DNA of 64,000 bases from an uncultured Acidimicrobiia bacterium. GTDB lineage: Bacteria > Actinomycetota > Acidimicrobiia > Spongiisociales > UBA5794. Position 1 is the stretch's first letter; each line of letters begins with the position of its first letter. Shown piece after piece: positions 37,952 to 52,196 of this stretch. The notes beneath the pieces were generated by a model. It saw nothing but the letters and a program-made list of their open reading frames with translations, was not told where the DNA came from and ran no database searches. Made by a program: the position numbers and the translations under genes. The stretch is taken from assembly GCA_963759175.1 (NCBI GenBank), contig CAVWXP010000008.1, positions 10,050 through 74,049 of the forward strand. Reading direction: 5' to 3'.

Positions 37952-37980
37952 CACAGCCATATCCAGGCATCACCTGACGG

Positions 37981-38262
37981 GCTTCAAATTCGTCGCCGTG
38001 CCGCTTGCACGGCAAGCTTCTCCTTCTCCAAAGCCTCCGTGGCGTCTGAACGGCCAGAGCGGAGCGGAACACCGGAGCGCAGAGAGCCCACACAGGAGAA
38101 GCCCCACGGCTTGGCCGCAGGGCTTCGAATCCGTCGCCGTACCGCTTGCGCGGCGGGCTTCTCCTGTTCTCCAAAGCCTCCGTGGCGCTTGAACGGCCCG
38201 AGCGGAGCGGACACCGGAGCGCAAGGCGCCCACGATTGGGGAGAACCCACGCCGACGAACGT
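37981..38262. repeat. tandem duplication of an approximately 141-bp unit (2 copies, about 85% identity) downstream of tRNA-Val(GAC)
   Basis: The copies align. Each contains a tRNA T-arm-like GGCTTC(A/G)AAT(T/C)CG segment and internal stems (GCCGTGC-N5-GCACGGC). Confidence 0.6.
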
Positions 38263-38314
38263 GCCGGTCAATGAATTGGGGGGAAGACCGCCAAGCAATC
38301 GTTCTCCCCAATCG
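38233..38314. repeat. 14-bp perfect inverted repeat CGATTGGGGAGAAC ... GTTCTCCCCAATCG (54-nt spacer) abutting the 3' end of tRNA-Val(GAC)
   Basis: Seen in sequence. The right arm ends one base before the tRNA 3' end. Confidence 0.6.
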
Positions 38315-38386
38315 TGGGCGCTACTGGATTTGAACCAGTGACCCCTGCCGTGTCGAGGCAGTGCTCTGCCGCTGAGCTAAGCGCCC
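38315..38386 (-). tRNA. tRNA-Val (anticodon GAC)
   Basis: GGGCGCTTAGCTCAGCGG..., anticodon loop CTCGACACG? read as TCGACAC, GGTTCAAATCC T-arm. Confidence 0.85.
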
Positions 38387-38440
38387 GGGTTTGTCGGTGA
38401 CCAGAAGATAGCCATCGAGGATGACATACCACTGCGGTCG

Positions 38441-38511
38441 AGGCGACGCCGGGAATCGAACCCGGGTACAGGGTTTTGCAGACCCTTGCCTCGCCACTCG
38501 GCCACGTCGCC
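38441..38511 (-). tRNA. tRNA-Cys (anticodon GCA)
   Basis: GGCGACGTGGCCGAGTGG..., anticodon loop CTGCAAA, GGTTCGATTCC T-arm. Confidence 0.8.
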
Positions 38512-38544
38512 AATAGGAAGGGCGGTCCTCGAGACCGCCCTCTC

Positions 38545-38620
38545 TGGAGCGGACGACCGGGTTCGAACCGGCGACCTCAACCTTGGCAAGGTTGCGCTCT
38601 ACCAGCTGAGCTACGTCCGC
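38545..38620 (-). tRNA. tRNA-Gly (anticodon GCC), CCA encoded
   Basis: GCGGACGTAGCTCAGCTGGTAGAGC..., anticodon loop TTGCCAA, GGTTCGAACCC, ...TCCA. Confidence 0.85.
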
Positions 38621-44720: not shown

Positions 44721-44736
44721 CCGAACATGCGTTCGG
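44721..44736. promoter_or_regulatory. LexA (SOS) box cCGAACatgcGTTCGg
   Basis: Matches the actinobacterial/Cheo-type TCGAAC-N4-GTTCGA consensus. Confidence 0.7.
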
Positions 44737-44752
44737 TGCATGGATCAAGGTA

Positions 44753-44767
44753 TCGAACGTCTGTTCG
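44753..44767. promoter_or_regulatory. LexA (SOS) box TCGAACgtctGTTCG
   Basis: Consensus match. Confidence 0.7.
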
Positions 44768-44776
44768 CTTGTCAAG

Positions 44777-44791
44777 TCGAACATATGTTTG
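44777..44791. promoter_or_regulatory. LexA (SOS) box TCGAACatatGTTCG
   Basis: Consensus match, 50 bp upstream of the lexA start. Confidence 0.7.
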
Positions 44792-44840
44792 GTCCCGACG
44801 CAACAACGCACTACCCTTCCGTCAACGACCAGGAGGGAAT

Positions 44841-45473
44841 GTGCCCGATCGCACCGAGCTCACCGACCGCCAACGCCAGATCCTCGACCTCATCCGCTCC
44901 ACGGTCGCCCAGCGCGGCTATCCGCCGTCGGTCCGCGAGATCGGCGACGCGGTCGGGCTCAGCTCGCCGTCGACGGTCCACAGCCACCTGTCGTCGCTGG
45001 CCGAAGCCGGCTTCATCCGCCGTGACCCGACCAAGCCTCGCGCCATCGAGGTCGTCGACGACGACGATGGCGCCATCCCGATCTCACGGGCAGCGGTTCG
45101 CGATGTCCCCCTCGTCGGCCACATCGCAGCCGGTAGCCCGATCCTCGCCGAGGAGGACATCGAGGAGGTCTACCCCCTACCCACGGAACTCGTTGGTACC
45201 GATCCCGTCTTCATGCTCCGGATCCGGGGCGATTCCATGATGGACGTCGGGATCTACGACCGCGACTACGTCGTCGTCCAGAAGCAGTCCACGGCGAAGA
45301 ACGGCGACATCGTCGCTGCGCTCGTCGGTGGTGAGGAGGCCACGGTGAAGCGGTTCGAGCGCACCGACACGGGCGTCGTCCTGCATCCCGAGAACGATGC
45401 CTACGAGCCGATGGTCTTCACCAAGGACATCGAGGTTCTCGGTGTCGTCGTAGCGGTGTTGCGAAGGCTCTGA
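44841..45473 (+). CDS. lexA: LexA repressor
   Basis: N-terminal winged HTH (LTDRQRQILDLIRS...), AAG cleavage region and S24 peptidase (GDSMMDVGI...). GTG start with AGGAGGG Shine-Dalgarno. Confidence 0.9.
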   Translation: MPDRTELTDRQRQILDLIRSTVAQRGYPPSVREIGDAVGLSSPSTVHSHLSSLAEAGFIRRDPTKPRAIEVVDDDDGAIPISRAAVRDVPLVGHIAAGSPILAEEDIEEVYPLPTELVGTDPVFMLRIRGDSMMDVGIYDRDYVVVQKQSTAKNGDIVAALVGGEEATVKRFERTDTGVVLHPENDAYEPMVFTKDIEVLGVVVAVLRRL

Positions 45474-50305: not shown

Positions 50306-51370
50306 TCACTCCTCGTCGGGCGCCTCGGTTTCGGCGGTCGCGACGGCGTCAGTGGCTTCGGCTTCGTCGTCCACGATCACCCCGACCGCACGGAGTACCT
50401 GATCCTGCAGCTGCATCGCCAGTTCCGGGTTCTGGCGGAGGAAGTCCTTCGCCTTCTCACGGCCCTGTCCGAGCTGTTCGTTCTCGTAGGTGAACCACGC
50501 TCCTGCCTTGCGAACGATGCCTTCCTCGACGGCGACGTCGAGCAGGCTTCCCTCACGCGAGATGCCCTCGCCGAACATGATGTCGAACTCGGCGATACGG
50601 AACGGCGGAGCGACCTTGTTCTTCACGATCTTGGTGCGCACCCGGTTCCCGATGTTCTCGGTCCCGACCTTGATGGCCTCGATGCGTCGGATGTCGATGC
50701 GAACACTCGAGTAGAACTTGAGGGCTCGGCCACCGGGGGTCGTCTCCGGCGAGCCGAACATGACACCGATCTTCTCGCGCAGCTGATTGATGAAGATCGC
50801 GGTCGTGTCGGATCGGTTGATGGTCCCGGCGAGCTTGCGCAGCGCCTGGGACATGAGCCGTGCCTGGAGGCCGACGTGGGTGTCACCCATGTCGCCTTCG
50901 AGCTCGGCACGGGGTACGAGGGCTGCCACCGAATCGATCACGACCACGTCGAGGGCACCCGACCGGATCAGCATGTCGGCGATCTCGAGGGCCTGTTCCC
51001 CGGTGTCGGGCTGAGCGATGAGCAGTTCGTCGATGTCGACCCCGATGGCGCGGGCATAGCTGGGATCCAGGGCGTGCTCTGCGTCGATGAATGCCGCCGT
51101 ACCGCCGTTGCGCTGCGCTTCTGCGACGACGTGAAGGGCGAGGGATGTCTTGCCGGAGGACTCGGGACCGTAGATCTCGACGATGCGGCCGCGGGGCACC
51201 CCACCGATGCCGAGGGCGAGGTCGAGCGAGAGGGCGCCCGTGGGGATGGCCTTGATCCTCGTGATCTGGTCGGTGCCGAGGCGCATGATGGCACCCGTAC
51301 CGAACTGCCGTTCGATCTGGGACATCGCCATCTCGAGGTTCTTGTCCTTGTCGGTGTCCTTCGTCGCCAT
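50306..51370 (-). CDS. recA: recombinase RecA
   Basis: [12 protein letters not shown] Walker A; classic RecA throughout. Confidence 0.95.
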
Positions 51371-51466
51371 GGTTTCCCTTTCTCTGTGGTGTCCGACACG
51401 GTATCGAGTGCCTGTGACACGATCGCGTCGGACGACCATCCGGGTGCAATCGTCACGCCATGGTAA

Positions 51467-51482
51467 CCGAACAGACGTTCGA
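51467..51482. promoter_or_regulatory. LexA (SOS) box cCGAACagacGTTCGA upstream of recA
   Basis: Consensus match, about 97 bp upstream of the recA start. Confidence 0.7.
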
Positions 51483-51494
51483 TGCGAGTATTTC

Positions 51495-51623
51495 GAGCTA
51501 TGAGCTTTGAGCTGTGAGCTCATGAGCCATGAGCGCGGCGGTTGGCGGTCGACGGTCCTTCCTGCTGTGAACCGTGAACCGTGAACTGTGAACCGAACTC
51601 AAAGCTCAAAGCTCAAAGCTCAG
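51495..51623. repeat. cluster of tandem heptamers (6x TGAGCTN, 4x GTGAACC, 3x CAAAGCT) with a 13-bp long-range inverted repeat TGAGCTTTGAGCT / AGCTCAAAGCTCA
   Basis: Seen in sequence between the thpR stop and the recA SOS box. Confidence 0.6.
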
Positions 51624-51641
51624 CCCCTTCCACCAGTGTGG

Positions 51642-52196
51642 TCAGCTGGCGAGGGGGAACCGTTCGAGCGGGGTGTAGGTGATCCCGCGAGGCGTGGGGT
51701 CGGTCCGGAACAGGGTGACCGCATCGACGCGGAACGGGACCGTGAACTCGGCGAAGGAGTCGAGGAGCTTGCGCACGTCCCTGGGCGGCCGCACTCGTGC
51801 GAGGGTGATGTGGGGCACGAAACGTCGTTCGGTGGGTTCGAGGCCCGCGTCCCTGCACGCCGCTTCGCAATGTGCGGCAACATCATCGAGCACACCGGAG
51901 ACATCATCGATCGCGACGTGGATGACGGCTGCCTTCGATGGTCGTGGGAAGGCGCCGAGACCGCTGCATCGGACCGACCCGGGAGGCACCGGTATCGCAT
52001 CGCCGAGCTCGTGCGACACACGGTCGACCTCGAGGTCATCGATCGGCCCCAGGAATCTGACCGTCACGTGCCAGTTCGCAGGAACGACTCGTTTCCCCGG
52101 TATGACCGGGCCCGGACTCGCCGTGTCGAGGGACGCAGCGAGTCGGTGACGGACTTCGTCGGACAGGTCGACGGCCAGGAAGGCATTGCCCGTCAC
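51642..52196 (-). CDS. thpR: RNA 2',3'-cyclic phosphodiesterase (ThpR/LigT, 2H family)
   Basis: Two H-x-T/S-x motifs (HVTVRFLG; HITLARV). GTGA overlap with the cinA stop. Confidence 0.7.
   Translation of the reverse strand: MTGNAFLAVDLSDEVRHRLAASLDTASPGPVIPGKRVVPANWHVTVRFLGPIDDLEVDRVSHELGDAIPVPPGSVRCSGLGAFPRPSKAAVIHVAIDDVSGVLDDVAAHCEAACRDAGLEPTERRFVPHITLARVRPPRDVRKLLDSFAEFTVPFRVDAVTLFRTDPTPRGITYTPLERFPLAS

Follow-up and report, generated by a model that had tools for sequence, protein, structure and literature searches.

Introduction

The recA gene of an uncultivated Acidimicrobiia lineage is preceded by a dense block of tandem heptamers with long-range inverted symmetry. Is this block a control element of recA, or is it a simple repeat that belongs to a known class? 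The block was first noticed in the 64-kb stretch of DNA analysed here (hereafter the window), and the original prediction offered three readings of it: a terminator or attenuator of cinA-thpR, a binding array for an additional regulator, and a slippage-prone tract.

Structure and position of the repeat block

Tandem Repeats Finder detected three period-7 arrays at 51495-51622 upstream of recA, which confirms the three types of heptamer array previously described beyond the LexA box. All three are held in the 271-nt spacer between thpR and recA (Table 1). Read in the recA sense, the block is composed of (TGAGCTT)3-TGAGTTC-(GGTTCAC/AGTTCAC)4, a spacer of about 32 nt, and (CTCATGG CTCATGA GCTCACA GCTCAAA GCTCATA GCTC). 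With 3.6, 4.1 and 5.6 head-to-tail copies of a 7-nt unit, each array has the three or more copies that define a long simple sequence repeat (SSR). The count of six TGAGCTN units given earlier was only partly borne out, as three exact TGAGCT copies are present together with three one-mismatch variants (CGAGCT, TGAGCC and TGAGCG).

The distal array begins about 20 nt past the thpR stop and makes up the 5' arm of a hairpin. The proximal array is the reverse complement of the distal unit; it makes up the 3' arm and stops about 6-10 nt upstream of the candidate -35 element. The block spans the region between the thpR stop (51642-51644) and the recA ATG (51370) and is non-coding. Judged by the candidate promoter, it is located in intergenic DNA upstream of the -35 element, and not in the recA leader to which the original prediction had assigned it.

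The 13-mer TGAGCTTTGAGCT is found at 51501-51513, and its reverse complement, 89 nt off, at 51603-51615 and 51610-51622, so the proposed 13-bp inverted repeats about 90 bp apart do exist, although the full inverted repeat is longer, with 27-nt arms. Six matches to the 13-mer were obtained at up to two mismatches, against 0.47 expected by chance. The 27-nt-arm repeat is the top-scoring local inverted repeat of the whole 64-kb window. No further copy of the heptamer motifs was detected in the window, even at two mismatches, nor did Tandem Repeats Finder return another period-7 array scoring at least 40 there; neither the window nor the 84 kb of related loci contained any other period-7 array with at least three good copies. 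Repeats of other kinds do occur: next to three clustered tRNA genes (38315-38620) are a 143-nt tandem repeat (37979-38233, 1.8 copies, 86% matches) and the two arms (38226-38246 and 38301-38321) of an inverted repeat that is perfect over 21 nt.

Table 1. Coordinates of the heptamer arrays, recA control elements and adjoining genes in the window.
Feature	Position	Strand	Basis
thpR/LigT-like 2',5'-RNA-ligase-family gene, TGA stop 51644-51642	51642..52196	-	Pfam LigT_PEase / 2_5_RNA_ligase2 on 184-aa L081 product
Distal heptamer array, (TGAGCTT) x3.6 in recA sense	51598..51622	-	Tandem Repeats Finder, unit CTCAAAG, 100% matches; pattern search
Middle heptamer array, (GGTTCAC/AGTTCAC) x4.1 in recA sense, GTGAACC on + strand	51567..51595	-	Tandem Repeats Finder, 90% matches; pattern search
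Non-repetitive spacer of about 32 nt between middle and proximal arrays; AGCAGGAAGGACCGTCGACCGCCAACCGCCGCG with flanking bases, recA sense	51535..51566	-	Read from sequence
Proximal heptamer array, NAGCTCA-type x5.6 in recA sense	51495..51534	-	Tandem Repeats Finder, 82% matches
Imperfect inverted repeat, 27-nt arms 51495-51521 and 51595-51621, 89% complementary, 73-nt interior	51495..51621	.	Inverted-repeat search
Candidate SOS-regulated promoter: -35 CTCGCA 51488-51483, -10 TACCAT 51465-51460	51460..51488	-	Alignment with relatives
LexA (SOS) box CGAACAGACGTTCG, separate from arrays	51468..51481	.	Core invariant across 11 relatives
Second promoter-like motif TGTCACAG-N8-TACCGT (TGTCAC-N10-TAccGT), LexA-independent, between SOS box and recA start	51398..51419	-	Alignment
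recA coding sequence, ATG at 51370	50306..51370	-	ORF list; Pfam RecA_N/RecA_C on identical product

Control elements of recA and neighbouring genes

Upstream of recA, thpR is preceded by cinA and rimO; the thpR start coordinate is approximate, as it is taken from the 184-aa gene call in the relative L081. The SOS box was found as predicted. It is contained in the 17-nt spacer between the -35 and -10 elements of the promoter that we assign, as a candidate, to SOS regulation, and a generic sigma-70 promoter scan of 51200-51800 returned no match. The second promoter-like motif is near-invariant in 11 relatives and is also present in more distant Acidimicrobiia; we take it to resemble the actinobacterial LexA-independent RecA-NDp/PafBC motif. 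A GAAAGGG ribosome-binding site follows downstream of it. In the alignment of 11 relatives, the SOS box core, the -10 region, the TGTCAC...TACCGT motif and the ribosome-binding site are all invariant or nearly so.

Three SOS boxes in a row (44722-44791) are situated directly upstream of the lexA ORF (about 44830-45473, + strand), and the middle one, CGAACGTCTGTTCG at 44754-44767, is an identical 14-mer to the recA box. About 165 nt past the recA stop, a 10-bp G+C-rich hairpin is followed by GTTCGTTTCC (50143-50119, - strand). It is plausible from its appearance that this hairpin is the recA terminator, and it is the only canonical-looking one nearby.

An ATG in the proximal array is in frame with recA and is separated from it by no stop codon (51371-51523, - strand), giving a 405-aa ORF. 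We rejected this ATG at 51523 as the recA start; a 1-nt indel in L081 breaks the frame, and in the relatives recA begins with the ATG that follows the conserved ribosome-binding site. Database RecA entries from several relatives are 383-413 aa long, and these probably reflect the same gene-calling artefact.

Variation among close relatives

The loci of relatives were retrieved by a RecA protein search in which 7995 homologues were scored. Among the species-representative genomes, the best RecA identity was only 77-80%. Six metagenomic relatives from at least five different samples have RecA identities of 95-100% (L081, 100%; L082, 99%; L083 and L084, 98%; L085, 97%; L086, 95%), and all of them carry the heptamer block, hereafter the cassette, directly upstream of the same leader. 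Together with the window, this makes seven independent assemblies that have it.

The cassette is hypervariable. In the comparison of recA upstream regions that the original prediction had suggested, repeat number differs, and the cassette measures 129 nt in the window and 128, 64, 149, 156, 120 and 121 nt in L081 to L086, respectively, i.e. 64-156 nt overall. For the distal array, about 9-10 units were counted in L083, L084 and L085, and about 3-4 in L081, L086 and the window; the middle array ranges from 2 to 5 units across the seven variants; and the proximal array, with 5-6 units in the window, is reduced to 2-3 in L082-L086, all of these copy numbers being based on short-read metagenome assemblies in which errors are possible. 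The spacer of about 32 nt is present in the window, L081, L083, L084 and L086, and missing in L082 and L085. In the latter two, the middle array is reversed, with 2 or 5 copies, and the distal arm resembles the reverse complement of the proximal arm of the window; the interior of the cassette is therefore inverted in L082 and L085. On the aligned variants, this inversion implies that the inverted heptamer arms recombined with each other or that the template was switched from one to the other.

The change is concentrated in the cassette. Over 7070 nt, the window and L081 show 24 differences; indels are limited to two events, of 4 nt and 1 nt, and both fall within the cassette. L083 and L084 differ in 17 of 2149 aligned columns, 10 of which belong to the cassette of about 150 nt. 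The adjoining 123-nt promoter/leader is indel-free in all six relatives and 94-99% identical, and the recA coding sequence is 92-94% identical in L082-L086. The view of the block as a slippage-prone tract is well supported by these data, in that unit numbers vary at RecA identities of 95-100% and all indels in the 7-kb comparison of the window with its nearest relative are confined to the cassette.

The gene bordering the block on the upstream side is thpR in the window and a GNAT acetyltransferase gene in some relatives, and in L082-L085 the first heptamer units overlap the last GNAT codons or stop. The GNAT gene lies between thpR and recA in L082-L085, L264, L335 and L336, and is missing from the window (51620-51650 region), L081 and L086. 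Where it is missing, CACTGG is joined to TGGAAGGG..AGCT; this looks like a deletion between GG microhomologies, by which the last GNAT codons (GAAGGAGCTGTGA) would have become the beginning of the heptamer array. In L083 and L084 the array displaces the GNAT stop codon and alters the GNAT C-terminus.

Relatives lacking the cassette and other Acidimicrobiia

The distribution of the cassette is restricted. No heptamer array was found upstream of recA in L261, L262, L263, L264, L335 or L336, whose RecA proteins are 90-95% identical, and none anywhere in the four large loci L261-L264 (76 kb). The SOS box and second promoter are conserved in these six relatives, whose genes follow a common order, rimO-cinA-thpR-(variable gene)-recA-rny-miaB. 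The original prediction had named absence from close relatives that do without the array as evidence against its reading, and these six lineages present exactly this situation. As far as the alignments can tell, the cassette lies outside the conserved recA control region, which does not need it.

L335 carries a single TGAGCTG, located at the GNAT stop codon, and a single GCTCAGC about 100 nt apart, in the equivalent place; by its sequence and location, this single-copy pair looks like an unexpanded precursor of the cassette. A 46-nt tandem repeat (three copies, 70% matches) is present at 17628-17767 of L261, near an nrdR-like gene on a 2.7-Mb contig.

Among 20 Acidimicrobiia-type loci, seven have a tandem array with a unit length that is not a multiple of three within the 400 nt that precede recA, and the remaining 229 kb of these loci have only seven such arrays. 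The window is one of the seven loci, and the unit differs from locus to locus. L001, the nearest reference-genome relative, has a different heptamer pair in a matching inverted layout and position: AGAATTC and TCTGCAT, inverted to each other (2750-2871, fold z -2.5). The others include CTTCCGY x4.6 in L002 (2834-2865), period-14 arrays in L005 (357-385) and L033 (2834-2862), a period-11 array in L011 (2682-2727), and a 17-nt unit x3.2 in L012 (2758-2913) which contains TTGACC plus half an SOS box and thus repeats the -35/operator region. We did not adopt the idea that the recA upstream region is a tandem-repeat hotspot in Acidimicrobiia, as the contrast is mostly one of non-coding with coding DNA and the window was chosen for its repeats; the hotspot is unproven. 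Recurrent repeats upstream of recA are nevertheless the one lead able to raise the interest of this locus.

Predicted folding of the cassette

RNA fold prediction, as suggested originally, yielded -80.3 kcal/mol with a z of -5.3 and a 27-bp closing stem for the sense strand, and both strands fold at about -80 kcal/mol with z about -5. The closing stem, i.e. the pairing of the outer arrays, is kept in seven of seven variants with z from -2.7 to -6.4, and is the single property common to all of them. Together with the inverted heptamer pair of L001, the kept arm pairing is a hint of selection for the hairpin over pure neutrality. Since the cassette occurs in both orientations, any function it has would be orientation-independent, which points to a hairpin or cruciform rather than to a directional protein site.

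No canonical terminator was detected in 51200-51800, and no U-run follows the stem on either strand. The sequence after the stem is GAAAUACUCGCAUCG, and the interior of the hairpin is 73 nt rather than a short loop. The missing U-tract is weak evidence, because canonical terminators are not enriched in this genome.

Heptamer arrays in unrelated organisms

A scan of a metagenome collection for the 18-mer TGAGCTTTGAGCTTTGAG, equivalent to (TGAGCTT)2.5, matched at least 120 contigs with G+C fractions of 0.24-0.67. Among the matches listed, none has the recA leader or the middle array, and the contigs therefore represent unrelated loci; nor is any member of the window's own clade among them. Two or more distinct adjacent heptamer arrays are present in 48 of the matches listed (at least 120), and an inverted partner array within 300 nt in 26, compared with 7 in a reversed-sequence control. 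Several arrays among the matches listed begin directly after a stop codon (e.g. L258, L160 and L178). In these respects the cassette resembles generic heptamer SSR clusters. The possibility that the array is a generic repeat occurring at many unrelated intergenic sites thus holds across other organisms, in these at least 120 unrelated contigs.

We rejected TGAGCTT as a special cross-phylum unit, since permuted heptamers are equally frequent in viral contigs: in a viral collection, 13 hits were obtained with the 18-mer, 13 with each of two permuted heptamers of matched composition, and 40 with GTTCACG. It appears that heptamers of many different sequences are common as tandem repeats.

A dispersed palindromic family with the layout GGTGACATTTTCGAA...(CAAAGCT)n...(GAGCTTT)n...TTCGAAAATGTCACC...GGGATTGGCTGTAC was also encountered among these metagenome matches, in low- to mid-G+C organisms. 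Its members are L143, L149, L150, L154, L156, L168, L172, L177, L231, L234, L243, L247, L248 and L251. From its sequence, the family looks MITE-like, with heptamer arms.

Interpretation of the repeat block

We propose that the block is a lineage-specific heptanucleotide SSR cluster without a specific regulatory role, and assign this reading a probability of about 0.7 on the comparisons above. Its seed was probably one inverted TGAGCTG...GCTCAGC pair located around the stop codon upstream. The pair would have grown via replication slippage, gaining and losing 7-nt units, as deduced from the comparison of variants. Sub-arrays would then have formed as mutated units spread, and the interior may have been flipped by an exchange between the inverted arms, through recombination or template switching. 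If the cassette has any role, it would most likely be that of an orientation-independent hairpin on read-through RNA, serving as a 3'-end barrier or insulator before recA. Located about 20 nt past the upstream stop, such a hairpin could halt read-through transcripts or lead to their processing.

The terminator or attenuator reading developed from the original prediction holds that the cassette is primarily selected to terminate or insulate cinA-thpR(-GNAT), blocking read-through and keeping recA under LexA, the heptamer texture being merely how the stem was built. Part of it stands, namely a long stem that survives turnover and inversion in all seven variants. The hairpin starts about 20 nt past the thpR stop and overlaps the GNAT stop codon in L082-L085, the sense strand folds strongly (-80 kcal/mol, z -5.3), L001 repeats the layout with a different heptamer pair, and the absent U-tract counts weakly where canonical terminators are not enriched. 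The rest of the reading fares less well, because no U-run follows the stem, whereas the hairpin downstream of recA (50143-50119) does have a T-rich tail; the interior is 73 nt; stem quality is uneven (z -2.7 to -6.4); and nothing comparable is seen in L263, L264, L335 and L336, where RecA is at 90-95% and the upstream gene is the same and co-oriented. We consider this reading unlikely. Were the hairpin to control how much transcription reads into recA, the cell would have in it a simple, mutable means of adjusting basal recombination and SOS capacity. An extended version is a long shot: the cassette would be a slippage-tunable, orientation-independent hairpin insulator whose stem length sets cinA-thpR read-through and so varies LexA-independent basal RecA among sub-populations, and the other Acidimicrobiia repeats (L001, L002, L005, L011, L012 and L033) would reflect repeated selection for tuning, not chance. 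A contingency element, phase- or rheostat-variable, would likewise generate RecA heterogeneity, with slippage tuning recA expression via read-through or the upstream promoter context. Copy number does differ between near-identical strains, and the 7-nt SSRs that control hmw1A in Haemophilus influenzae provide a precedent (PMC8262952 and PMC12721329). However, the arrays are located upstream of the -35 element, outside the promoter spacer, the 5'UTR of the SOS transcript and the ORF, so that unit changes leave the promoter geometry unaltered. SSR contingency loci act through frame, promoter spacing or the 5'UTR, and here the arrays end before the -35 element and the promoter/leader is indel-free. 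The arrays are also short (2-10 units) and sister lineages have none, and the sequence comparison makes a contingency element appear very improbable.

The remaining two readings concern what the block would bind or where it would have come from. As an operator array, the heptamers, especially GGTTCAC, would be iterated sites for a further transcription factor acting on recA. Direct repeats do lie close to the -35 element, and GTTCAC-like cores occur in OmpR-family regulator sites. A 7-bp period, however, puts the sites off one helix face, while the known actinobacterial heptamer/PHO-type sites repeat every 11 bp. The palindrome GAAC-N4-GTTC is missing from the arrays, whose GAAC/GTTC cores share one direction. 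Unit number, unit sequence and orientation all shift within the clade, and the array is missing one step out, in the next relatives, where the SOS box and second promoter are invariant and the -10 element and ribosome-binding site are conserved without the cassette. The regulator array of the original prediction is therefore not supported and appears scarcely credible. Among specific candidates, the PhoP PHO box (GTTCACC units every 11 nt), the SARP heptamers (TCGAGNN every 11 nt) and the CRP/GlxR site, a palindrome, were ruled out by the 7-nt spacing, the lack of a palindrome and the non-conserved array. Alternatively, a small non-autonomous mobile element, MITE- or REP-like, may have inserted upstream of recA. 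Terminal inverted 27-nt arms around a unique interior, confinement to one narrow clade and the dispersed palindromic family with (GAGCTTT)n arms in other metagenomic organisms would agree with this. Yet no second copy was found in 64 kb at two mismatches or in the flanks of the relatives, no target-site duplication is evident at the cassette, and the middle array and interior occur in none of the matches listed (at least 120 metagenome contigs). Moreover, the arms vary by whole units, as SSRs do, and L335 shows a plausible unexpanded precursor in place; we regard insertion of such an element as highly improbable.

The SSR-cluster reading clarifies an eye-catching block. It is probably not a new recA regulator, and the real control elements lie downstream and are conserved without it. 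The locus also offers a clean natural example of a fast-changing heptamer SSR cluster beside an indel-free promoter in an uncultivated Acidimicrobiia lineage.

Comparison with known repeat classes

In many prokaryotes, no class of long SSR is described as more abundant than the heptanucleotide repeats; slippage would be promoted, according to the proposed explanation, because 7 nt is the length of DNA that the polymerase holds (Mrazek et al. 2007, summarised in PMC4679880 and PMC4692102). Genomes with many 5-11-nt repeats included those of Actinobacteria (Mrazek, Guo and Shah 2007, summarised in PMC4679880 and PMC4692102). The recA cassette shares with the prokaryotic long SSRs tandem 7-nt units in a few to tens of copies, a non-coding location, length polymorphism and the attribution to slippage; that class is defined genome-wide by over-representation (PMC4679880, PMC4692102), whereas the cassette is one site seen in 64 kb.

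Hairpin-forming elements of other classes show a looser likeness. Similar to REP/BIME palindromes, MITEs and hairpin terminators, the cassette is an imperfect palindrome right after a stop codon and forms a long hairpin on the upstream transcript; unlike them, it has no dispersed copies in the 64-kb window, no conserved family sequence, no target duplication and no U-tract. Rfam gave no family at the gathering threshold for the whole window, or at E<=1 for 51300-51720.

A 7-nt SSR controls hmw1A/hmw2A expression in Haemophilus influenzae; like the cassette, it precedes a gene, and its copy number differs from strain to strain (PMC8262952, PMC12721329). The hmw1A/hmw2A repeat is part of the transcribed 5' region, consists of many units and has an expression effect shown by experiment (PMC8262952, PMC12721329); in contrast, the cassette lies upstream of the -35 element and is short.

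The intergenic heptamer families come nearer. In the heptanucleotide repeats of Calothrix PCC 7601 (cited in PMC4692102) and the TAACTGA repeats of Beggiatoaceae and Cyanobacteria (PMC4679880), tandem heptamers are likewise intergenic and often mixed with related heptamers, and both sources give their function as unknown. These are genome-wide families with one conserved unit (169 sets for TAACTGA), mostly just upstream of start codons (PMC4692102, PMC4679880), whereas the cassette is local, has drifting units and sits upstream of the promoter. Dispersed copies of the kind seen in the STRR, TAACTGA and GGGAATC families were absent from the 64-kb window at up to two mismatches.

The Xanthomonas GGGAATC and Nostoc GGGGAYT repeats are also intergenic with heterogeneous units (Rehm et al. 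2015, PMC4692102). They comprise 2-26 units, and their inverted pairs are able to form stem-loops or cruciforms (PMC4692102). They differ in being G-rich, in forming G-quadruplexes and in occupying about 180 sites per genome (PMC4692102), while the cassette units TGAGCTT and GGTTCAC are not G-tracts. In Xanthomonas, sister species have their heptamer repeats at shared intergenic sites, where both length and sequence vary extensively and some of the repeats are inverted pairs (PMC4692102). The recA-upstream block is a new example of this known, poorly understood class, the intergenic heptanucleotide SSR clusters.
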